Source: Desulfurococcaceae archaeon (GTDB lineage Archaea > Thermoproteota > Thermoprotei_A > Sulfolobales > Desulfurococcaceae). Taken from it: 10,216 nucleotides of DNA. This document shows, one piece after another, positions 1-10,216 of this stretch. Each line of letters opens with the position of its first letter. Within the stretch, counting starts at the first letter, position 1. The notes under the pieces are model-generated. The model did no database searches. It worked only from the letters and a program-made list of their open reading frames with translations, and was not told the DNA's origin. The stretch spans positions 1 to 10,216 of the forward strand of contig JAWAJB010000038.1 of NCBI GenBank assembly GCA_038888155.1, given 5' to 3'. A program made the translations under genes and the position numbers.

Positions 1-462
1 GATCACGCGCATTCTTGTGGAGTTCCAGTAATTCACCTGGTCGACAGCCACTTACCGACAGATCATGAGTTAAAGATATGGGGGCCTCATGCAATTAAAG
101 GCTCTCCAGAAGCTAAGATAATTGATGAATTAATGCCTATGGAAAACGACTTAGTGTTATTTAAGAGAAGCTATAGTGGTTTTAGAGGCACAGGTCTCGA
201 CGTACTTCTACGAGATCTTGGCGTTAAAACAGTGCTCTTAACAGGCATACATACGCACATATGCGTATTACATACTGCTTGGGATGCATTCTACTACGGC
301 TATGACATTTATGTCGTTAAGGACGCTGTAGCCGCGTTCAGTGAAGAAGATCACGAGTATGCGCTTAACTACATGGAGAAAACTTATGGAGCAAAACTCA
401 TTACAACACAAGAAGCAATAGAATTTATGAAGGCTACAGTAATTAAAACTGGTTCTACATAG
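1..462 (+). CDS. Cysteine hydrolase, isochorismatase/nicotinamidase (PncA-like) family; 5'-truncated by window edge
   Basis: Frame 1 is open from base 1 (DHAHSCGVPVIHLVDSHLPTDHELKIWGPHAIKGSPEAKIIDEL) into the listed ORF at 133. It has D-x-H and WGPH metal-site-like motifs, a catalytic Lys in FKRSYSGF, a catalytic Cys in TGIHTHICV, and VVKDAVAA. Stop TAG at 460-462. Confidence 0.9.
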   Translation, partial: DHAHSCGVPVIHLVDSHLPTDHELKIWGPHAIKGSPEAKIIDELMPMENDLVLFKRSYSGFRGTGLDVLLRDLGVKTVLLTGIHTHICVLHTAWDAFYYGYDIYVVKDAVAAFSEEDHEYALNYMEKTYGAKLITTQEAIEFMKATVIKTGST

Positions 463-679
463 AAAAACCTATGGAATACAATATATAAGACTTTAGACTC
501 TTCATAGAATCGCTGACCCACTGATTAATGTCTCGAAGATCGAATTATGACTAAGTTTATGAACTAAGAATTTTAAGGTTACATTGCATGCATCATTAAA
601 ACTTATTTTTTAAATATGAAATGTAAAGAAATGCATCAAAATTTTTAGATATAAGGACCCCAATGTATGATATCCACAT

Positions 680-2140
680 TTATTGGTATGTCTTTTGAGC
701 TCTTTCCCTAATCTCCTTAAGCATTTTCCTAACATCCTCTTCTAAAGGTTCAGGTCTATGAGTCTTAAGTATTTCTGCAACTTTCTCTCTCGCCCTCATC
801 AAGATATCTTTTGCACCTCCACTCTCCCATGATTCTCTAGAGAGTCTATCACTTATTTTTGGTATGTAGTGTTCTTTTCGTAAGTATTTTAATGTATGTT
901 TTTGTGTTAGAAAGTTTCCTCTTGGACCAACATTCATTATAACATCTAACGCCAAAGTTTCTTCATTTACATTAATACCCTTTAAGCTGTGAAGAATCAT
1001 TCCGATAATTTCATCATCAATAACCATTTGCTCAGGGCTTATACTAAGTATAAAATCGAGCATTCCGGTGGCAAGGTGAATTAAATTGGCTCCACCTAAA
1101 GCATTATATAATGCAGTGATAGCCTTCTCATACCCTGCTTGCTCATCTGGAACTTTAGAGTCACTTATTCCTCCCGCCCCTACATAAGGTATACCATAGA
1201 ATTCACGGAAAATTTGTGCAGCTCCAGCACACATTAAACCGGTTTCAATAGAGCTTAAGACAATGTTCGCCGTTCTCATATCCATAATAGCGGGAAGAGT
1301 ACATGCTATTGTTGGTGCCCCCTTCTTCAATAATTGAGCTAATACTAGACCGCTTATAACTTCGGCACACTGTTGAACTAATGAACCAGCAAGCGTTATA
1401 GGTGCTGTAGCTCCAGAAATAGTTTCACTTGATATTATGGCTGGAACGCTCTTCTCAGCGCATGCCTTTAACACTCCCAACGCGCTTTCACTCCATGTAA
1501 ATGGGCTTGTAATGCATGGTGCGAGTGAAATTATTGGGCATTTTCGAAGATTGTCCTCTCCTCCAACAACTATTGAAGCCATTTTAATTTGATCAAGAGC
1601 GCCTTCATAGCCTTCAGCGTCATGATAGAAATGTTTCTCAGTATAGTTTAACGCGATTTCACACTTAACACGATCTACCCCTCTTGGAGGCACATCTTGA
1701 GGATAGACTGGTGCTAAATAGCAATGTACATTTTCAAGTGCATCAGCTAATATAGTCAATTTTATTAAATCATCGGTTAGGGCCTGTCTACTTTTAAATT
1801 TTGTTCCATCAAACTCTACAACTCTAACAGCGTTAGCTCCTCCAGCAAAGTATACTCTAGTGCCTTCGAGCTTTAAGTTATACTTTGGATTGCGTCCACA
1901 TAGTTTTATTATTCTTGGAGAATTATTTATGGCCTCGTTTACTAAATGTTCAGGGATATAGGCTCTTCCAGTTTTGTAATCTACGTGACACCCATTCTCA
2001 TTAAGCAAGTCTAAAGCCCATTTACTTTCATAAACTACTCCAGATTTTTCTAAAATTGTAAGAACTGCGTTATGTATCATGTGTATTTCATCCATGTCTA
2101 AGAGTCTTAAAGGCTTGTGAACGATCATGCCTTCTTGCAT
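680..2140 (-). CDS. mttB: MttB-superfamily (trimethylamine methyltransferase family) corrinoid methyltransferase MT1, non-pyrrolysine
   Basis: Family motifs IHNAVLTILEKSGV, LCGRNP, SGATAPITLAGSLVQ, DMRT and SDSKVPDEQAGYEK...GGANLI...GML...SPEQMVIDDEI. No in-frame TAG. ATG at 2140 is preferred over the ORF-track TTG at 2158 because GGAGAGTGA (SD-like, containing the upstream stop) lies 7 nt before it. The symbol denotes the family, not TMA specificity. Confidence 0.92.
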   Translation of the reverse strand: MQEGMIVHKPLRLLDMDEIHMIHNAVLTILEKSGVVYESKWALDLLNENGCHVDYKTGRAYIPEHLVNEAINNSPRIIKLCGRNPKYNLKLEGTRVYFAGGANAVRVVEFDGTKFKSRQALTDDLIKLTILADALENVHCYLAPVYPQDVPPRGVDRVKCEIALNYTEKHFYHDAEGYEGALDQIKMASIVVGGEDNLRKCPIISLAPCITSPFTWSESALGVLKACAEKSVPAIISSETISGATAPITLAGSLVQQCAEVISGLVLAQLLKKGAPTIACTLPAIMDMRTANIVLSSIETGLMCAGAAQIFREFYGIPYVGAGGISDSKVPDEQAGYEKAITALYNALGGANLIHLATGMLDFILSISPEQMVIDDEIIGMILHSLKGINVNEETLALDVIMNVGPRGNFLTQKHTLKYLRKEHYIPKISDRLSRESWESGGAKDILMRAREKVAEILKTHRPEPLEEDVRKMLKEIRERAQKTYQ

Positions 2141-2147
2141 TTTTATA

Positions 2148-2804
2148 TCACTCTCCAATGTTAAGAAGCTTCTTTACTTTAACTAGAGCGTCTTTCGCGT
2201 CAGCCCCCCAAGCATCAGCCCCTATGCTCTTAGCAAAGCTCTCACTTGTCGCAGCACCACCAATAATGATCCTAACCTTGTCTCTCAATCCAGCTTCCTT
2301 TAATTTTTCAATAACTTCCCGCATTTTTTCTGCAGTTGTTGTCAGTAAAGCCGACATTCCTAAAACATCAGGTTTAAGTTCCTTTACTTTTTCTACAAAA
2401 GTGTTCACTGGCACATCAACTCCTAAATCAATAACTTCAAAACCATTTGCCTCAAGAAAGGCCTTAACTATATTCTTACCTATATCATGTATGTCTCCTT
2501 CAACTGTACCTATGAGAACTCTTCCAAGCATAATAGGCCTTCCCCCCTCTTTACCAGCAATAAGAGGGACTAAGATCTCCATACAGGCTTTCACAGCTTC
2601 CCCAGAAATTATAAGTTCTGGCAGAAAAACCTCTTGTTTGGCGAACATATCGCCAATTCTATTTAATGATCTAATAAGTGACTCCATGATTTTATTGGGA
2701 TCAATGCCTTTTTTTAAAGCCTCTCTTACTAGAGAAATGACTTTATCTGAATCAAACTCAAAAAGTGCATTCTCGATGCTACTTATGACCTGCCTTTCAT
2801 CCAT
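2148..2804 (-). CDS. Methyltransferase cognate corrinoid protein (MttC/MtbC/MtaC-type B12-binding protein)
   Basis: N-terminal cap with VFLPELI, B12 motif GTVEGDIHDIGKNIV (D-x-H-x-x-G), then DLGVDVP, MSALLTTT and IIGGA. The ORF-track GTG at 2813 is part of the SD GAGGTG (2811-2816), so ATG at 2804 is the likelier start. Confidence 0.95.
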   Translation of the reverse strand: MDERQVISSIENALFEFDSDKVISLVREALKKGIDPNKIMESLIRSLNRIGDMFAKQEVFLPELIISGEAVKACMEILVPLIAGKEGGRPIMLGRVLIGTVEGDIHDIGKNIVKAFLEANGFEVIDLGVDVPVNTFVEKVKELKPDVLGMSALLTTTAEKMREVIEKLKEAGLRDKVRIIIGGAATSESFAKSIGADAWGADAKDALVKVKKLLNIGE

Positions 2805-2839
2805 GAAAGACACCTCAATTCCTTTGACTCCTAGCGAAT

Positions 2840-3487
2840 TTATTCCCCGTAAGGCTTTAAGTCCCCTTTCTTGAAGTTTTCAAATGATCTTAGCTTTTCA
2901 TAAGCATGCTCTGAGCCTTTAACAATGAAGTCAACCATTTCGCAGTAGCCATAATCATAAGGGTCTCCTCTGCACATAGCTTTTTCTTGTACAAACCTTA
3001 GTCTAGGATTGATCTTGCGTAAGTAAGCATCGGCATTCTTTGCACACCATGCTGCTAAATCTATTTTCTTCTCTAACCCGAGCTTTATAGCCACGTCAAG
3101 AACAATGCATCGACCGCCTTCGGATGGACCGAGCCCCTTTATTGCCGTACGTGTTGGAGTATATTCAGTCACTTCATCAATGTAGCCGGGCCATGCATTT
3201 ACTCCAGCAAAGGCCTCTGTGGAAGCCCATATTCTTGCATCATTAAATTGAAGGTTTGCTACCTCTAAGGCTCTTAAAACACCAGGCCATCCTTCATCAG
3301 CGCTTTTAAGCAAAGCTTCATTAACTTTATCCCATCCTAAGCCCATATCCTCAGCCATAGTCTTACATAGTCTAAGAAAGATTTCTATCCAAAATTCAGT
3401 CGAATACCTCCATTGCTCTTCAGTAGTTAACTTAATTTTTGAAATCACATTTTGAGAAAGCTTCGCGCTGTTCAAGCACAACACCAA
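2840..3487 (-). CDS. Hypothetical protein resembling the L-2-amino-thiazoline-4-carboxylic acid hydrolase-like / V4R-HNOX fold family
   Basis: Helical N-half followed by RC127IVL...KLG...WC148...INPRLRF...MC172RGDPY, matching the remembered C...C...NP...GD pattern. It abuts the cupin stop (TAA-TTG). The start is uncertain because only TTG/GTG codons occur at 3475-3487. Confidence 0.6.
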   Translation of the reverse strand: MVLCLNSAKLSQNVISKIKLTTEEQWRYSTEFWIEIFLRLCKTMAEDMGLGWDKVNEALLKSADEGWPGVLRALEVANLQFNDARIWASTEAFAGVNAWPGYIDEVTEYTPTRTAIKGLGPSEGGRCIVLDVAIKLGLEKKIDLAAWCAKNADAYLRKINPRLRFVQEKAMCRGDPYDYGYCEMVDFIVKGSEHAYEKLRSFENFKKGDLKPYGE

Positions 3488-3865
3488 TTATTCTTCCTTA
3501 TTAAGGTAATAGACTTTAGCTATTTCAGAGTGTGGAGGGACTGTAACATAAAGGTATCTCATTGGTTTTTTAACAGTTATAGTAACTTTTGCGCCTTTCT
3601 TCAGAACTATAAGATCCCCTTTACTAATGTTGTATTCTTCCCCCGTTCTTCTTTCTTTTACTGTCGCCTCACCATCAAGGATTAAGAGAACTTCGTAATA
3701 CTGCATTTCAGGCCCTATGGTTTTACCACTTAAAATGTCAGCTATACCGGCTGATAGAATGCCTGGGATATATATGTAGTCATCCCATGCCACTTCAGCC
3801 GTAGGTGCTTCCTTCTTTGACAGTTTACTTTCTATAACATTTTTATATACTTCAACAAATGACAT
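3488..3865 (-). CDS. Cupin, EutQ-like / DUF861 (cupin_3) type
   Basis: LSAG...YYEVLLILDGE...KGDLIVLKKG...RYLYVTVP parallels the EutQ pattern (AG...YDE..vLEGE...GD...PKG...FLYV.WP). It lacks the His-rich metal motif. SD GGGGAG at 3874-3879. Confidence 0.8.
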   Translation of the reverse strand: MSFVEVYKNVIESKLSKKEAPTAEVAWDDYIYIPGILSAGIADILSGKTIGPEMQYYEVLLILDGEATVKERRTGEEYNISKGDLIVLKKGAKVTITVKKPMRYLYVTVPPHSEIAKVYYLNKEE

Positions 3866-3911
3866 ATATGCTTCTCCCCAAATGTTTTCTAGATATTGAA
3901 TAAAGACGAAG

Positions 3912-3926
3912 TATAAAAAGTTTAAT
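3912..3926 (-). promoter_or_regulatory. Putative archaeal BRE/TATA internal promoter for cupin-to-mttB genes
   Basis: Minus strand reads ATTAAAC-TTTTTATA about 46 nt upstream of the cupin ATG, in the largest gap of the cluster (76 bp), followed by SD GGGGAG. Confidence 0.55.
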
Positions 3927-3941
3927 TACTATAATTGTAAG

Positions 3942-4898
3942 TCAAAGAAAGTGACATGCCACAAAATGGCCTGGTCGGGCTTCTACTAGATCTGGTGCTT
4001 TCATTTTACACAACTCCCTAGCAAATGGACATCTGGTGCTAACCACGCACCCTTTTATATGGTTCATTGCTGCTGATGATACGTCTTTCAAAACTACTCT
4101 CTCTTTTGGTACAAAGCCGGGCTCAAGGATGGCTGAATGTAGGGCACGTGTATAAGGATGCAGCGGATCTACAAATATGTCCCTTTTTGACCCCATTTCC
4201 ATTACTTTACCCATATAAAGTACGACGACCTTATCGCAAATGTATTTTACAACTGCTAAATCATGAGAGATAAAGATCAGCGTAAGGTTAAGTTGAGTCT
4301 TTAAGTTTTTAATTAGTTCTAATATTTGGGCTTGAGTAGATACATCTAGTGATGAAGTTGGTTCATCGGCTATAACAAGCTTAGGACTGGTGATAAGAGC
4401 TCTAGCTATTGTGACCCGTTGCTTTTCTCCACCGCTAAGCTCATGCGGATACCTATCTAAATATGAGGGAGGTAAAGCAACTAGATCTAGAATTTCCCTT
4501 GCTTTTCTAAACATCTCTCTTTTCTCTAAATTCTGAAGTTTTAATGGTTCACTGACTATTTCTGCGATTGTCATCTTAGGATTTAATGCCGAAGAAGGAT
4601 TTTGAAAAATCATACCCATTTTTTGACGAACCTTTCTTAACTCTTTCTTACTCAACTTAAACATGTCATAATTCATAAAGCGAACAGTTCCTCCGTTGGG
4701 CTTCATTAATCCCATGATCAGTTTCGCAATAGTAGATTTCCCTGAACCTGATTCCCCAACAAGACCTAAGGCCTCACCTTCATTAACGGTAAAGCTCACG
4801 TCATCTACGGCTCGGATATACTTCTTAGCGAATATCCCTACTTTGATAGGGAAGTATTTCCTCAATTTTATGACCTCAAGAATTGGTGCCTGATGCAT
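3942..4898 (-). CDS. oppF: Oligopeptide/dipeptide/nickel ABC transporter ATP-binding subunit (OppF/DppF)
   Basis: Walker [21 protein letters not shown], Walker [21 protein letters not shown], and C-terminal Cys motif GC-x5-C-x6-C...HFVACH. Confidence 0.95.
4296..4388. repeat. 93-bp near-identical direct repeat, copy 1 (inside oppF)
   Basis: 89/93 identical to 5275-5367; 4330-4388 is a perfect 59-bp match to 5309-5367. Confidence 0.95.
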
Positions 4899-4914
4899 AT
4901 TTTCAACACACTCA

Positions 4915-5895
4915 CTAAGTTTTTATACGAAAGCACGCAACTGCGTGTTCAGAATTGACGTTCGTCAGCGGCGGCTCCTCTTTTTTACAAATACTTTCAG
5001 CGCAACTACATCTTGGGTGAAATCTGCATCCAGGAGGAGGATTACTTAAATCCGGTGGTTTTCCTTGGATAATGAATAATTTATCAACATCCCTATGTAA
5101 GTAAGGCACAGCATTCAAAAGACTTAATGTGTAAGGGTGGCTTGGATTCTTCAATAATTCTTCTCTATTAGCAATTTCAATGATTTTCCCCCCATACATC
5201 ACAGCAATCCTATTACATATTGAAGACGCTACACCTATATGGTGTGTTATAAGGATCATTGAGAAATTTATATAAGTCTTTAAGTTTTTAATCAATTCTA
5301 ATATTTTAGCTTGAGTAGATACATCTAGTGATGAAGTTGGTTCATCGGCTATAACAAGCTTAGGACTCGCGGCAAGTGCCATGGCTATCACTACTCGTTG
5401 TCTCATGCCAATGCTAAGTTCGTGGGGATAGCTTGAAAATCTATGTTTCGCATCCATTATACCGACTTTATTAAGAAGATCAATCACTTTTTCTTTAATT
5501 TCTGCATTAGATTGTACATCTTTACAATGCTCTTTTATTACCTCAGCTATCTGTTCACCTATTGTTAAACACGGATTTAGTGAGGAGGATGGATCTTGAA
5601 AAATCATGGAAATTTTTCCACCTCTAATTTTCCTCATTTCTTTCTCATCCTTTCTAACAATGTCCTCCCCTTCGAAGAATATTTTTCCAGAAACTATTTT
5701 GGCATAGGGAGGTAAAAGTTTAATTATAGCTCGTCCAAGCGTGCTTTTTCCAGAACCTGATTCACCTATTAAACCTAAAACATCTCCTTCTTCTAAGTGT
5801 AAGTTCACTCCATCAACAGCTTTAATTACGTTTTTTGGGAGATTATAGTAAACCTTTAGATCTCTGATTTCTAATAAATTTGATGTTCCATTCAT
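4915..5895 (-). CDS. oppD: Oligopeptide/dipeptide/nickel ABC transporter ATP-binding subunit (OppD/DppD)
   Basis: [43 protein letters not shown] and PPPGCRFHPRC...C...HAVAC. SD AGGTG upstream. Confidence 0.95.
   Translation of the reverse strand: MNGTSNLLEIRDLKVYYNLPKNVIKAVDGVNLHLEEGDVLGLIGESGSGKSTLGRAIIKLLPPYAKIVSGKIFFEGEDIVRKDEKEMRKIRGGKISMIFQDPSSSLNPCLTIGEQIAEVIKEHCKDVQSNAEIKEKVIDLLNKVGIMDAKHRFSSYPHELSIGMRQRVVIAMALAASPKLVIADEPTSSLDVSTQAKILELIKNLKTYINFSMILITHHIGVASSICNRIAVMYGGKIIEIANREELLKNPSHPYTLSLLNAVPYLHRDVDKLFIIQGKPPDLSNPPPGCRFHPRCSCAESICKKEEPPLTNVNSEHAVACFRIKT
5275..5367. repeat. 93-bp near-identical direct repeat, copy 2 (inside oppD)
   Basis: Pairs with 4296-4388 at an offset of 979 bp. 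Confidence 0.95.
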
Positions 5896-5897
5896 AA

Positions 5898-6743
5898 CTA
5901 CACCTTTATAGCTAATAAATCTGAGAGAGCATCACCAATAATATTTAAGGAGAGAACTGTTAGAAAAATAAAAACTCCTGGAAAAATAGAAATCCATGGA
6001 TAACTTGATAAAAATCCTCTACCGATATAAAGAAGTCTCCCCCATGAAGGTATAGTTGGATTTCCAAGACCGATGAAGGAAATAGTCGCTTCATAGAGAA
6101 TGAACCAAGCGGCATCAAATGTTAGTACAACAATTATGGGCGATGTAATATTTGGTAAAATATGCTTGAAAATTATATACATGTCACTGAAACCCATTGC
6201 TTTTGCAGCTATTACAAAATCCTCTTCTCTAACTCGTAAGGATTCACCTCTAATAATTTTTGCTAACCAAGGCCAATTGATAAACCCCATTACTAATATT
6301 ATAGATAATAGTGATTGAGCTCTAAGTAATGTAACAGCAACTATTAGTAGGACTATGGTAGGTAAAGTTAGTACAGCATCAGATATTCTCATTAATAGCT
6401 GATCGATATATCCGCCAAAATAGCCTGCGAAGAGACCTATGGGTAAGGCAATTAGTAATTCTATTACTATAGCTCCACAAGCTATCATGAGAGAAGTCCT
6501 AGTGCCCCAAACGATTTGACTAAAGATATCGCGCCCAACGTGGTCTGTACCCATGAGAAAATCTAAAGAAGGCGCCATACCAGCTTTTCCTGAAAAAACT
6601 CTATTGGGATCGTAAGGTGCTATAAGAAATGGGAAAAAAGACATTACAACTATTATAGAGACCCATATATTTGCAAACATCAACAATTTATTCTTCTTTA
6701 TGTGATAAAAATAGAGCTCTACAGCTTCACGAATACTCTTCAT
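5898..6743 (-). CDS. oppC: Peptide/nickel ABC transporter permease (OppC/DppC)
   Basis: APYDP, GTDHVGRDIFS...GTRTSL, EAA loop DFVIAAKAMG, HILPN, PSWG, and multiple hydrophobic segments. TAATG overlap with oppB; SD GGAGG at 6753-6757. Confidence 0.95.
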   Translation of the reverse strand: MKSIREAVELYFYHIKKNKLLMFANIWVSIIVVMSFFPFLIAPYDPNRVFSGKAGMAPSLDFLMGTDHVGRDIFSQIVWGTRTSLMIACGAIVIELLIALPIGLFAGYFGGYIDQLLMRISDAVLTLPTIVLLIVAVTLLRAQSLLSIILVMGFINWPWLAKIIRGESLRVREEDFVIAAKAMGFSDMYIIFKHILPNITSPIIVVLTFDAAWFILYEATISFIGLGNPTIPSWGRLLYIGRGFLSSYPWISIFPGVFIFLTVLSLNIIGDALSDLLAIKV

Positions 6744-7720
6744 TAGTATTTGCCTCCTTCTAATTTTATTTGAGGATTAAGGTATATGTACAAAACATCT
6801 ATCATTATGCTTGAAGCAATGACCATTACTGCTGTAATAAAAGAAACCCCCATAACTACCCAATAATCTCTAGCAATAGCTGCAGATACTAATAAAGAAC
6901 CTAGACCTGGCCAAGCAAAAACAACTTCTACAACGTAACTTCCACCAAATATTAATCCTAGGGACGTTCCTATTGCAGTAACTGTAGGAGCAAGGGCATT
7001 TCTTAGAGCATGCTTATAAACTATTACTTTCTCACTTAAACCTTTAGACTTAGCTGCGAGTATATAGTCTTTTTTCGAAACTTCTGCCATGCTTGCTCTA
7101 AGTAATCTAAAGTAGTAAGGCGTAAATCCAATTACAAGGACTGTTGTAGGTAATACCAAGTACTTCAAGTGATCAAACGGAGTAGATAGTGCTGTTTCTA
7201 ATCCCATGGTAAATGCTCCAACGGGGAACCACTTAAGAGACACGGAAAACACTAGTATAAATATTAAGCCTAGCCAAAAGTCAGGAATAGAGTAGCCTAC
7301 TAAAGCCAATAACGAAAGAGTTTTATCTAGCATAGAGCCATGTTTATATCCGGATATAGCGCCGAATATTATTGCAAGGGCTGCTGAAATCGATTGGGAA
7401 AGCAACATGAGTTCCACGGTATACCAAATCCTTGAAGAAATCAGTTCAACAACAGGTCTACCCGAGACGGAGAAGCCTAAATTGCCAGTAAATACATTGT
7501 AAAGCCATAGAAAATATTGCTCATGCAATGGTCTGTCAAACCCAAATCTTTGAATTAAAATTTCTCTTATTTCTCGCGAACCTTTCGTAGTTGCTAACAT
7601 AATGTCAATCGGATTACCAGGCGCTACATGGAGGAGGAGAAAAATTATAGATGTTACTATAACTAATGTTGGAAAGGTAAGCAAAATTCTTATTAGCAAA
7701 TATCTCCTTAAGCCAGGCAT
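6743..7720 (-). CDS. oppB: Peptide/nickel ABC transporter permease (OppB/DppB)
   Basis: PGNP, GFDRPLHEQY, GNLGFS, SIPDFWLG, EAA loop DYILAAKSKG, KHALRNAL, VEVVFAWPGLG, LNPQI. SD AGGTG at 7731-7735. Confidence 0.95.
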   Translation of the reverse strand: MPGLRRYLLIRILLTFPTLVIVTSIIFLLLHVAPGNPIDIMLATTKGSREIREILIQRFGFDRPLHEQYFLWLYNVFTGNLGFSVSGRPVVELISSRIWYTVELMLLSQSISAALAIIFGAISGYKHGSMLDKTLSLLALVGYSIPDFWLGLIFILVFSVSLKWFPVGAFTMGLETALSTPFDHLKYLVLPTTVLVIGFTPYYFRLLRASMAEVSKKDYILAAKSKGLSEKVIVYKHALRNALAPTVTAIGTSLGLIFGGSYVVEVVFAWPGLGSLLVSAAIARDYWVVMGVSFITAVMVIASSIMIDVLYIYLNPQIKLEGGKY

Positions 7721-7733
7721 GTAGCTTATACAC

Positions 7734-9488
7734 CTATTTTCTCCGCCTTGATTCTACAATATGCATAGATATAGCGCCTACAGCTAGACCTCCTATGAAT
7801 GTTGTACCAACGTATAAGTACACTCGTTCAAGCGGCACGCCATAAGTCCTTAAGGTGTACCCTGCTTTTGCAAGATATTCAAGCGCTTTTTCAGGATTAT
7901 ATTGAGCTAATGGCGGTATGTCAGCATTGTATGCCCAGCTGCCAGGATATATCGGACCATTAGCAGGTCTTCCATGGCCTTTTAGAACATCATTAATGAT
8001 TGTGTCTATAGGAATTAAATTAGCTATAGCAAGCCGCACATATCGATTATTTAATATTGGATGGTTAAGGTTAAAACCTAAGTAAGCCACTGCTGGAAAC
8101 GGGATAAATGTTGCATTAATATTTGGATTAGCTTGTAGCGATGGAAGTTCAGCATAAAGTTCGGGCCCGGTATATTCTGATATTATTATGTCAACTTCGC
8201 CAGTTTTAAGGGCTGAAATGGCGGTTGCAACTTCAGGAATCACAACTATCTCTATTCGATCTACGAATGGTTTACCTTTCCAGTAGTTGGGGTTGGCTTC
8301 TAAAACTACTCGTTGATTAGGTACAAACTCTACAATTTTATAAGCACCTAAGCTTACAATTTGTTCGGGACGAGACCAATAACCCCTCCACTGCTCATAC
8401 GGTACTTTACCGAATATGTGTGCAGGGACTATGCCTCCAGTACAGTACCCTCCAAGCGCAGCTAAGATTAAAGCATTTGGCTCTTTTAAATGGAATACTA
8501 CCGTGTAGTTATCAGGCGTTTCTATACGCTCTATCTCCTTTAAGTCTGCAAGTGCCGGTATACCTGTAGCTGGGTTAAGCATTCCTTCATAAGTGACCTT
8601 TACATCTTGTGCTGTGAACGGCTGACCATCAGACCATGTAATGTTTTTCCTAAGATGAAATGTTATGGTTAAGCCATCCTTAGATATTTCATAAGATTCA
8701 GCTAGGTCAGGTATAAGCGTGTAAGTTCCATCGGGTAACCGCATACTTCTCAATAAATTGGGGAAGACGGGAGCTATTGCCACATATTGAGGTATGGAAG
8801 TTGTCATACCAAATAGCGGATCAACATAATTCTCCATGAAAGGAATAGCAACTCTTATTACAATGTAATCCTCCTCAGTTTTACCCCTTACTCTCCATTC
8901 ATCGGCATTTTGTGTCCACAGGATGGGGTCGTAGTTTTCGAGATCGGCTCTAGCACATGTGCAAACGTCAAAATAATATAGAGGAATGAAAGGTGGATCT
9001 TGCTGAAACTCTATTGTAAATTGTGAATAGTACTTTACTCGCTCATTTTTATCATACGTTTTTCTAGCTTTCTCTAATAACTGAGCAACAACTGCATTAT
9101 TGTAGCTCCATTCATTCCAACCTCGAGGGGGAAAGCCGTCTGGAGTAAAGCTTGAAAAGAAAAGCATGTCCTCAGGTCTCCAATACCACCAGTAAGAATC
9201 TGCATCAAACCCTCCTTCTTCATAAGTAAGTCTAAATGTTTCTGCTCCCCAAACCTTACTAAAGAAGGTACCTGCGTCTTCACGAACTATGTCCATTTCG
9301 ATGCCAAACTTAGCCAGAGAGTCTTTGATTACTAGCATGGCGGCATATTCTCTTTCATAACCGATTGGCACAGTAACTGTAAAGCGGAATAAAGTTTCAG
9401 TACTTGTTGCATTAAGACTTGGCACAAACGGAAGAATAAGGCATAGAAGTACTAGAAGTAGAGCTGTGAGTGTTTTAGTTTTCCTCAT
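7734..9488 (-). CDS. oppA: Family 5 (OppA/DppA-type) ABC substrate-binding protein, apparently circularly permuted, with signal peptide and C-terminal TM anchor
   Basis: Basic plus hydrophobic N-terminus; PDLAESYEISKDGLTITFHLR...WSDGQPFTAQDV; GAYK; ANPNYW; LNNRYVRLAI; YNPEKALEYLAKAGY; hydrophobic C-tail ending RRRK. Confidence 0.92.
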   Translation of the reverse strand: MRKTKTLTALLLVLLCLILPFVPSLNATSTETLFRFTVTVPIGYEREYAAMLVIKDSLAKFGIEMDIVREDAGTFFSKVWGAETFRLTYEEGGFDADSYWWYWRPEDMLFFSSFTPDGFPPRGWNEWSYNNAVVAQLLEKARKTYDKNERVKYYSQFTIEFQQDPPFIPLYYFDVCTCARADLENYDPILWTQNADEWRVRGKTEEDYIVIRVAIPFMENYVDPLFGMTTSIPQYVAIAPVFPNLLRSMRLPDGTYTLIPDLAESYEISKDGLTITFHLRKNITWSDGQPFTAQDVKVTYEGMLNPATGIPALADLKEIERIETPDNYTVVFHLKEPNALILAALGGYCTGGIVPAHIFGKVPYEQWRGYWSRPEQIVSLGAYKIVEFVPNQRVVLEANPNYWKGKPFVDRIEIVVIPEVATAISALKTGEVDIIISEYTGPELYAELPSLQANPNINATFIPFPAVAYLGFNLNHPILNNRYVRLAIANLIPIDTIINDVLKGHGRPANGPIYPGSWAYNADIPPLAQYNPEKALEYLAKAGYTLRTYGVPLERVYLYVGTTFIGGLAVGAISMHIVESRRRK

Positions 9489-9519
9489 GCTCTACCCCCA
9501 TGTACTAGTAAGTATCCAC

Positions 9520-9534
9520 ATTAAAAACTTTTTC
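9520..9534 (-). promoter_or_regulatory. Putative archaeal BRE/TATA promoter of the transporter operon
   Basis: Minus strand reads GAAAAAG-TTTTTAAT about 31 nt upstream of the ATG at 9488, followed by the G-rich SD-like GGGGGT. An alternative box, AAACTTTAAAA, lies at 9573-9583. Confidence 0.5.
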
Positions 9535-9760
9535 AACTACGTCAAAATAATTTTTATAGTAAAAATCGGGTGTTTTAAAGTTTATGCATTAAAATTTACA
9601 TAAGATAATTAATACAAAAGCGATGCATAATAAACTACTATCTATACACTGTTCAACATTCATTTCAGAGTCCAGTAGTGTTGGATGTAGTGAAATCTAG
9701 GATAATCTAAGGCTAAGGTTAGCTAAAAGAGATCTTAACGTAAACTTCAATTTCGTTAAA

Positions 9761-10216
9761 TTAGTAGATAGGGATTGGCATCACAGTTTCCTCGACATTT
9801 AAAACTCTAAATTTAACTCCATATACTTTTGAGAGTACTTCCTCCGTTAGTACTTCTTTCACGCTTCCTAAGGCCACCCCCTCTCCATTGTTTAATATAA
9901 GGACTTTAGTAGCTGTGTTTGCTGCAAACACTACGTCATGTGTAGTGAATATTGTCAACACTTTGTCCTTAAGTATTTTTAGAGTCTTTGAGAGTTCTAC
10001 CTTGCTCTTAATATCTATGTGCGCATCGGGTTCATCCAATAGCAGTATTTTCGGGTCTTTGGCTAGTGCCATAGCTAACAACACCTTCTTCAGTTCGCCA
10101 GCGCTTAATTCACTCAACTTTCTGTTCTGTAAACCAAGTACTCCAAGCATCTTCATTACTTCATGCGCCCTATAGAAGTCCTCGCTGCTTTCAAGAAAGC
10201 TCTTTGAGATAGGGTA
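9761..10216 (-). CDS. ABC transporter ATP-binding protein, FepC/BtuD (iron-chelate/cobalamin) type; 5'-truncated by window edge
   Basis: The frame is open to 10216 (YPISKSFLESSEDFYRAHEVMKML). It has ELSAGE, ILLLDEPDAHID, TTHD and the C-terminal EVLTEEVLSKVYGV typical of this subfamily. Confidence 0.85.
   Translation of the reverse strand, partial: YPISKSFLESSEDFYRAHEVMKMLGVLGLQNRKLSELSAGELKKVLLAMALAKDPKILLLDEPDAHIDIKSKVELSKTLKILKDKVLTIFTTHDVVFAANTATKVLILNNGEGVALGSVKEVLTEEVLSKVYGVKFRVLNVEETVMPIPIY

Follow-up and report, generated by a model that had tools for sequence, protein, structure and literature searches.

A strain-variable nine-gene island of a probable hot-spring archaeon joins an Opp-type importer to a non-pyrrolysine MttB-superfamily methyltransferase and two rare small proteins

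Results and discussion

We analyzed a window of 10,216 bp, i.e., the whole of contig JAWAJB010000038.1 (C38) in a 2.42-Mb bin of 134 contigs classified as a Desulfurococcaceae archaeon (GenBank assembly GCA_038888155.1), and found on its minus strand (9488-680) nine head-to-tail genes that form a real, conserved and mobile set. These genes encode an ATP-binding cassette (ABC) importer of the Opp/Dpp/Nik type with its family-5 substrate-binding protein (SBP), a small EutQ-like cupin, a protein of 215 amino acids (designated X215), a corrinoid protein and a member of the MttB methyltransferase superfamily without pyrrolysine (Pyl). The MttB/corrinoid and the Opp-type parts are of known kinds; what is new is their combination with two rare, dedicated partners. 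The set is conserved through rearrangements in related loci, X215 and the cupin are both rare and linked to it, the MttB protein carries neither the Pyl nor the MtgB signature, and the block behaves as an island. We think it rather probable that the nine genes act as one horizontally mobile catabolic unit for uptake plus demethylation.

To our knowledge, every characterized member of the MttB superfamily has represented a new anaerobic methyl donor (i.e., trimethylamine, glycine betaine, proline betaine, carnitine, gamma-butyrobetaine and phosphocholine), and most MttB clades are still orphan. An importer of its own and two rare partners make the orphan clade described here experimentally tractable, and the SBP can be screened for ligands.

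The nine genes recur together in three gene orders

In the ORF (open reading frame) list and translations for the whole window, the nine genes are all co-oriented, with intergenic distances ranging from a 1-nt overlap (at 6743) to 76 nt (3941-3866) and with purine-rich Shine-Dalgarno (SD)-like motifs 4-12 nt 5' of most of the nine starts. This arrangement is as described in an earlier note made from the sequence of this DNA, and Pfam and NCBIfam matches bear out the labels given there for the Opp-type importer, the EutQ-like cupin, the corrinoid protein and MttB.

Loci related to the window were collected with an X215 alignment (A1), which recovered one locus among 185,579 species genomes (L002, in a metagenome-assembled genome of a Candidatus Methanomethylicia archaeon) and 22 metagenome loci, for a total of 23; gene content was assessed by tblastn of the nine window proteins over these loci and by clustering of all locus ORFs. 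All nine genes were present in 4 of the 23 loci (L002, L003, L006 and L007), eight were present in L005 and seven in L011, and partial sets ended by contig edges were found in L008, L009, L010, L012 and L021; besides the 4 complete loci, 6 others contain most of the genes. The proteins of related loci were 53-79% identical to those of the window at the amino-acid level (one corrinoid-gene match was 46% identical). The gene-neighborhood check proposed in the earlier note was thus run and found the gene set conserved elsewhere; the two small proteins, which the note had assigned to the same unit, recurred with the same partners.

Three gene orders were observed. While every gene is codirectional in the window, the transporter genes are divergent from the cupin, X215, corrinoid and MttB genes in L002 and L004-L007; in a third order (L003, L008-L011), the corrinoid and MttB genes are divergent from the cupin and X215 genes, and the transporter genes converge on X215. 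Retention of the same partners through rearrangement is a classical sign of functional coupling, and the recurrence of these partners in three gene orders suggests that the nine genes represent a functional unit, more than a chance association. In L004, a decayed stretch (9055-9946) between a URO-D gene and the X215, corrinoid and MttB genes encodes no more than a 162-amino-acid piece of an ATPase and half of the cupin (the C-terminal one); this remnant indicates that the transporter can be lost with the methyl-transfer genes staying.

Genes of the URO-D family, which in methanogens provides the second methyltransferase (transferring methyl groups from the methyl-corrinoid to the acceptor), were found in several related loci. 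In L004, L005 and L007, a divergent member comes directly after the transporter genes and has their orientation, others are located beside MttB in L003 and L009 or directly after X215 in L013 and L014, and the encoded proteins score 36-68 bits on MtaA/MtbA-type models (cut-offs 235-600).

The block is present or absent as a whole

Hot-spring metagenomes from several studies contained DNA near-identical to the window. In three DNA runs, each from a different study, contigs represent an island-free allele in which position 417 is joined to position 9798 with 197 different letters between; these contigs have depths of 17.2, 167.7 and 284.2, as compared to approx. 0-9 over most intervals inside the island, and differ from the flanks of the window at 4 of 836 positions. 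As the flanks meet at one site in an abundant form, the block is a real 9,380-bp insertion/deletion polymorphism and not a chance chimera. The nine genes thus make up an island that varies between strains and comes or goes as one piece, and this polymorphism in hot springs provides a natural experiment on the role of the island in high-temperature cycling of methyl groups.

Both island edges fall within the 3' ends of a convergent gene pair; searches of the window revealed neither a tRNA or integrase gene nor direct repeats at the boundaries. The GC content of the block is 37.9%, as compared to 40-42% for the flanks. X215 was found in 1 of the 351 genomes of the class of the bin and in 1 of 62 genomes of the class of the L002 genome, a patchy distribution that fits horizontal transfer. 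At the right-hand junction, one DNA contig of run X2 tracks the window up to 9824 and continues with unlike sequence, which suggests a third flank variant. An apparent contig joint of 2510 to 4432, with sides of 26 letters, was set aside as cross-matching. Matches to tRNAs with lengths of 92-112 nt (the model has 71 nt; introns are possible) were found within approx. 0.1-4 kb of three related loci (L002 8339-8448, L003 14836-14927 and L011 11411-11522), in L002 directly downstream of MttB; these tRNAs may bear on the mobility of the island.

Contigs of an RNA-library run matched X215 (2808-2996 and 3071-3405), the junction of the SBP and permease genes (7643-8081) and the SBP gene (8871-9109) with 99-100% identity and 2 mismatches in total. 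As DNA can occur in an RNA library, these matches provide a weak hint of expression. The flanks and most of the genes had no coverage in the RNA library, to which we attach no weight.

Assignment of the island to a host is unsafe as the bin looks composite. The bin is larger (2.42 Mb) than most genomes of the same genus (1.2-1.5 Mb; one incomplete genome has 0.9 Mb), its contamination is 6.4%, the GC content of its 10-kb pieces is bimodal (approx. 42% and 47%), and 36 contigs (343 kb) have a GC content below 40%. Moreover, X215 was found in none of the 350 other genomes of the class, and the ATPase encoded in the flank has no close orthologue in the genus, the best match being only 48% identical. 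An archaeal origin of the island is supported by the archaeal label of the L002 genome, the long tRNAs near L002, L003 and L011, the C-terminal anchor of the SBP and the nearest named relatives of MttB.

Table 1. Features of the 10,216-bp window
Feature	Coordinates	Strand	Evidence
Family-5 substrate-binding protein, 584 aa	7734..9488	-	PF00496 SBP_bac_5 7e-88
OppB/NikB-type permease, 325 aa	6743..7720	-	BPD_transp_1 2.3e-35 + BPD_transp_1_N
OppC/NikC-type permease, 281 aa	5898..6743	-	BPD_transp_1 2.1e-26 + OppC_N
OppD-type ABC ATPase, 326 aa	4915..5895	-	ABC_tran 5.6e-33 + oligo_HPY 6.1e-19
OppF-type ABC ATPase, 318 aa	3942..4898	-	ABC_tran 2.3e-37 + oligo_HPY 1.2e-12
EutQ-like small cupin, 125 aa	3488..3865	-	Cupin_3 1.3e-7, EutQ 3.5e-5
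X215, divergent ATC_hydrolase-like protein, 215 aa	2840..3487	-	Profile homology + predicted fold
Cognate corrinoid protein, 221 aa	2148..2813	-	B12-binding 7.5e-30 + B12-binding_2; DIHDIG
Non-Pyl MttB-superfamily methyltransferase, 486-492 aa	680..2158	-	PF06253 MTTB 2.7e-102
Strain-variable 9.38-kb island, nine genes + outer spacers	418..9797	.	Metagenome contigs joining 417 to 9798
Flank, isochorismatase-family hydrolase gene, 3' part (outside island, not in system)	1..462	+	PF00857 5.7e-38
Flank, unrelated ABC ATPase gene, 3' part (outside island, not in system)	9761..10216	-	ORF

The MttB-superfamily protein and its corrinoid protein

The MttB protein, for which the ATG at 2140 is a likelier start than 2158, matched PF06253 with 342.8 bits (cut-off 25; residues 15-484 on positions 29-492 of the 500-position profile) and thus belongs to the MttB superfamily. 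It scored 472.8 bits, below the cut-off of 525, on TIGR02369, the equivalog model for the Pyl-containing trimethylamine enzyme, and its codon at the Pyl position (aligned to X, i.e., Pyl, of 7xcl and to the UAG of PYLIS_3) is AUA (Ile331, 1168-1166), consistent with the claim of the earlier note that this MttB is non-Pyl. The best PDB matches were near-equal, with 278 bits for MtgB of Desulfitobacterium hafniense and 276.5 bits for the Pyl-MttB 7xcl (phmmer).

In MtgB, glycine betaine is contacted by Y97 and F356 (pi-cation) and by R312 and H348 (carboxylate) (PMC13080624). In a phmmer alignment to 9yce/2qne that was mapped by hand, the positions of Y97, R312, H348 and F356 are occupied by A108, V326, L362 and I370. 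These four residues as well as I331 are kept in the 23 closest homologues of the window protein, and MtgB has Leu at the position of I331. As Ile is found at the Pyl site and the glycine betaine-binding residues of MtgB are absent, the MttB protein is by these tests neither a trimethylamine nor a glycine betaine enzyme.

The clade of this protein consists of approx. 25 database rows with at least 52% identity, after which identities fall to 48%; the nearest named relatives are from Bathyarchaeota (55%) and Thermofilaceae (46%). Other MttB genes are present in 31 of the 351 genomes of the class of the bin. Five of these, 33-43% identical, were compared; a corrinoid gene adjoined four of the five, and no transporter, cupin or X215 gene was found near any of them.

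A match to the Rfam model PYLIS_3 (46.2 bits, above the gathering score; 1069-1168, minus strand) begins exactly at the AUA codon of Ile331. Several of its base pairs are broken, and the model also matches six other non-Pyl mttB genes (in L002, L003, L009, L011, L013 and L072); the match was therefore rejected as a functional element and appears to be an echo of the coding sequence.

The adjoining gene encodes a cognate corrinoid protein, with matches to PF02607 (60.5 bits) and PF02310 (103.7 bits) and with the DxHxxG motif. This protein scored 209.8 bits on TIGR02370, slightly under the cut-off of 215.3, and 200 and 181 bits on models of the MtgC type (cut-offs 370 and 310, respectively).

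X215 is a rare partner of corrinoid methyl-transfer systems

X215 showed no match to Pfam or NCBIfam even at an E-value of 10, a PDB sequence search gave nothing useful, and the protein does not reach membership in PF14196 (ATC_hydrolase; 28.1 bits) by hidden Markov model (HMM); a six-frame PF14196 search of the bin matched contig C3 and not contig C38, i.e., the window. Remote homology to this family was found with the A1 profile, which matches three proteins (P0167, P0168 and P0175; E 3e-20 to 5e-9) that are all above the PF14196 cut-off. The profile search yielded 34 representatives at E <= 0.001 among 1.84 billion, and of ten distant matches that were scanned, seven carry PF14196 at E <= 0.01, three of them above the cut-off. 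The top ESM Atlas cluster for X215 was also ATC_hydrolase (0.91, 186/256 features), a lead from a language model. Overall, the label "ATC-hydrolase-like" given in the earlier note is right as a statement of remote homology, as indicated by the profile and ESM Atlas evidence, but not as one of family membership.

The AlphaFold (AF2) model of X215 predicted from alignment A1 has a pLDDT of 92.5. A Foldseek search with this model retrieved TRAPP Bet3 (E 1e-4, probability 1.0, TM 0.48-0.62) as well as the phenol-sensor domains of DmpR and MopR. A search independent of Foldseek (VIA) retrieved DmpR (Z 8.8, 162 residues aligned, root-mean-square deviation 5.2), Bet3 (8.4) and PoxR (8.4), values that barely exceed the caution line of Z 8, and below these the V4R protein MJ1460 (5.7) and H-NOX (5.5). 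The model thus falls in the fold group of V4R, Bet3, XylR-DmpR sensor and H-NOX domains, and X215 is, on the basis of profile homology and predicted fold, a divergent relative of ATC_hydrolase with the V4R/Bet3/phenol-sensor fold.

In the X215 family, C127, C148, C172 and H194 are invariant and D178 is near-invariant (alignments A1 and A4); C127 and C148 are near-invariant across the whole of alignment A4. X215 shares Cys positions with PF14196 (AtcB), whose members its profile retrieves, and differs from that family, besides the HMM non-match, by Asp178 where canonical relatives have their fourth Cys, by a C-terminal extension of approx. 30 residues that contains the invariant His, and by its linkage to MttB. 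In the sensor domain of MopR, zinc is held by three Cys and one Glu, an arrangement that would fit a metal site in X215; the protein probably binds a metal and has the fold of a ligand sensor.

The X215 family is small, with 29 clusters in a database of 5.8 billion. Canonical PF14196 genes were found in 55 of 401 genomes sampled from the phylum, and none of 30 canonical loci examined adjoined MttB or corrinoid genes within +/-1.5 kb (one adjoins a URO-D gene). Eleven distant X215 homologues, with 48-67% identity, were located beside MttB paralogues (25-34% identity) in five cases (L013, L014, L015, L017 and L022), beside a corrinoid protein in one (L016) and beside Pterin_bind, DUF1638 and MTHFR genes in two (L023 and L024); for the other three (L018-L020), no methyl-transfer neighbor was seen on their short contigs. 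These neighbors suggest that X215 is a partner of corrinoid methyl-transfer systems generally, not of this transporter alone. The occurrence of X215 with other MttB paralogues may also explain why some recombinant MttB homologues have been inactive with the usual amines. A complex prediction for MttB (alignment A2) with X215 (A1) gave no answer (score 0.00) and counts neither way.

Several loci with distant X215 homologues contain additional genes. L013 (1-9167), L015 and L017 carry two or three MttB paralogues together with sugar-amine-type genes. L013 and L015 encode an importer of the SBP_bac_1 type and L013 also a fucose/arabinose-isomerase-like protein, while L017 (1-13088) encodes a PfkB kinase, a GntR/UTRA regulator, a SIS-domain protein, an aldo-keto reductase with an Fe-S domain and an M24 peptidase. 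These gene sets presumably resemble fructosamine (frl) operons, a hint that some MttB paralogues act on glycated or sugar-linked amines. The most distant X215 homologue (48% identity; L023/L024, 1753-7155) is located on a bacterial-looking contig near a fragment of a DDE transposase and a Pterin_bind methyltransferase, with DUF1638, fused MTHFR and aldehyde dehydrogenase genes and, downstream, a histidine kinase/LuxR pair.

The EutQ-like cupin

The cupin scored 31.6 bits on Cupin_3 (PF05899; cut-off 23.5) and 24.1 bits on EutQ (PF06249; cut-off 21), placing it among the EutQ-like cupins. Its model has a moderate pLDDT (67.9), and the top Foldseek matches were EutQ (4axo and 2pyt) and DUF861 (1o5u), with E-values of approx. 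3e-5. An HxH metal motif is absent. This protein is rare as well, with 6 clusters in the 5.8-billion-cluster database, all of which are at least 66% identical, and its mean column identity across 8 loci is 80%. The 76-nt spacer located 5' of the cupin gene (3941-3866) contains a TATA-like sequence (TTTTTATA) and a GGGGAG SD-like motif.

The importer

With SBP_bac_5, two BPD_transp_1 permeases and two ABC_tran/oligo_HPY ATPases, the importer has the five-component architecture common to the Opp/Dpp/Nik (PepT) family. It differs from described members in its SBP, which combines a signal-peptide-like N-terminus with a hydrophobic C-terminal anchor and is circularly permuted compared to classical family-5 proteins (residues 252-545 correspond to 40-317 of 4oet, and residues 59-184 to 356-471; phmmer, PDB). 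As their alignment spans residues 31-584, the SBPs of L002-L011 share this permuted layout.

None of the components reached an NCBIfam cut-off for a substrate-specific Opp, Nik, Dpp, Gsi or Cnt equivalog. The best rows for the SBP were nikA (121.8 bits; cut-off 393) and Opp4A (121 bits; cut-off 650). The permease encoded at 6743-7720 scored 270.7 bits on Opp2B (cut-off 350), with NikC (229.5 bits) also among the top permease rows, and the permease encoded at 5898-6743 scored 262.2 bits on Opp4C, under the cut-off of 350.

Proposed function and alternative explanations

If the nine genes are, as we think rather probable, one uptake-plus-demethylation unit, the importer would take up an N-methylated compound, with both direction of transport and substrate class presumed. 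The non-Pyl MttB protein would, as judged by its family membership, move a methyl group from this compound or a derivative to the Co(I) of the adjoining corrinoid protein, and the cupin and X215 may represent dedicated accessories that bind or pre-process substrate or product. The methyl group would then be passed to an acceptor by a second methyltransferase encoded outside the window, for which the divergent URO-D gene beside the block in related loci is a candidate.

A more specific possibility, which we put forward tentatively, is that X215 is a new, rare accessory subunit of MttB corrinoid systems, i.e., a Cys3-Asp metal protein that presents or pre-processes substrates which MttB cannot take, and that the island serves uptake and demethylation of a new class of methyl donors (e.g., an N-methylated peptide, opine or Amadori-type amine) and spreads horizontally between thermophilic archaea.

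Several observations weigh against a unit of this kind. As the cupin is without metal ligands and X215 has a sensor-domain fold, neither small protein need be an enzyme, and L011 is without the cupin and corrinoid genes. No component gives the substrate: NCBIfam matches are far under the equivalog cut-offs, and the PDB scores of the SBP are near-equal for nickel (NikZ 4oet, 114 bits), peptide (AppA and DppA), heme and opine binders. One transcript for all nine genes is presumptive: the 76-nt spacer before the cupin gene contains a TATA-like box, and the cupin and X215 genes form a separate unit in other loci. A second methyltransferase (MT2), a RamA-type activase and a regulator were not found among the window genes with Pfam and NCBIfam, so the window does not hold a complete system of methyltransferase, corrinoid protein, MT2 and activase. 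Neither McrA nor RamA was detected in the bin, which says little as the bin looks composite; in the L002 genome McrA was not found and two RamA genes were present, and contig C32 of the bin carries one partial URO-D gene.

One alternative explanation, which we regard as rather unlikely, is that an ordinary peptide importer travels with an unrelated MttB/corrinoid module and that the cupin and X215 are regulators or ligand sensors. Opp-type systems are common in peptide-fermenting thermophiles, the fold of X215 is that of phenol-sensor domains and Bet3, the cupin can be likened to AraC/BgaR sensor domains as well as to EutQ, and the spacer ahead of the cupin gene is promoter-like. On the other hand, adjacency of the two parts is held in three gene orders and at least nine loci, the methyltransferase-like URO-D gene directly follows the transporter genes on the same strand in three related loci, Pfam and NCBIfam revealed no DNA-binding domain in the cupin or X215, and all nine genes come and go together within the island.

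Alternatively, X215 could be an AtcB-like hydrolase that opens a heterocyclic or amidine-type ring in the imported compound or in the product of demethylation, with the cupin acting as an EutQ-like kinase or an EctC-like cyclase/hydrolase and the substrate being a methylated heterocycle; AtcB is known as a thiazoline hydrolase and EutQ as an acetate kinase. The transitive homology to PF14196, the ESM Atlas cluster and the weak matches of the cupin to EutQ and ectoine synthase point in this direction, and the change of the fourth Cys to Asp178 could leave a coordination site of a metal open. However, X215 does not match PF14196 directly, its nearest solved folds are non-catalytic binding domains, a PDB search found no solved structure or mechanism for the ATC_hydrolase family, and the cupin is without the metal-binding His motif; we judge this explanation unlikely.

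That the importer serves the cofactor instead, supplying the B12-dependent module with chelated cobalt or nickel or with a corrinoid, and that the methyl donor takes another route into the cell, appears quite improbable: the methyl-transfer module does require a cobalt cofactor, and the SBP has its top PDB match in the nickel-binding NikZ-type protein, and nikA, the Opp2B nickel permease and NikC are among the top NCBIfam rows, but peptide, heme and opine binders score within a few bits, with all rows far under their equivalog cut-offs, an RNA-element search of the window found no cobalamin riboswitch or other RNA element, it would be unusual for one such importer to stay tied to a single narrow clade of MttB proteins across three rearrangements, and the more distant loci with X215 and MttB carry an importer of the SBP_bac_1 type, which is a better fit to substrate uptake.

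Comparison with known systems

The glycine betaine system MtgB/MtgC (D. hafniense; Methanolobus vulcani) resembles the window in that a non-Pyl MttB member is encoded next to its cognate corrinoid protein. It differs in that the window protein keeps none of the four glycine betaine-binding residues of MtgB (PMC13080624), the corrinoid protein is far under the MtgC cut-offs, the window adds the cupin, X215 and the Opp-type importer, and no pterin-type MT2 adjoins the block. Compared to the Pyl-dependent trimethylamine system MttB/MttC of Methanosarcina, the window protein belongs to the same fold family and retains a PYLIS_3-like sequence after the Pyl-equivalent codon, but this codon is AUA and not UAG, and the equivalog cut-off is not reached.

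In Eubacterium limosum, MthK must phosphorylate choline before MthB can act (PMC12155760). As described there, the choline system MthB/MthC/MthA/MthK combines an MttB member with a neighboring gene for an accessory enzyme that makes the real substrate and with a transporter in the cluster; in terms of function, MthK/MthB is the closest analogy to the cupin and X215. The system is likened to the window by its description only, and differs in that its accessory enzyme is a kinase of another family, its transporter is of the EamA type and its MT2 is a tetrahydrofolate methyltransferase.

In the portions of the literature that were searched, we found no description of an Opp-type importer linked to a corrinoid methyltransferase module. 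In the same literature, taken without supplements (e.g., the neighborhood tables for Culexarchaeia and Brockarchaeota, which could hold similar clusters), we found neither this gene set nor any association of ATC_hydrolase-like proteins with corrinoid systems described, in line with the statement in the earlier note that no characterized system with this gene set was known; the terms sought were also absent from a paper on the mlp cluster (PMC10418091).

Other features of the window and bin

A scan of the window for sigma-70 promoters and terminators yielded 35 sites, as compared to 30.3 expected, and is uninformative. On the plus strand, a frame of 238 codons rich in Ser, Pro and Ala (2158-2874), which belongs to no family cluster, runs antisense to the corrinoid gene and is almost certainly a shadow ORF of that gene. 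Elsewhere in the bin, contig C4 (30423-33083; L036, 6424-9084) carries a second methyl-transfer cluster, which encodes a weakly MetE-like protein, a corrinoid protein and an MtrH homologue; radical-SAM genes are located nearby, one of them with an HMPTM zinc ribbon.

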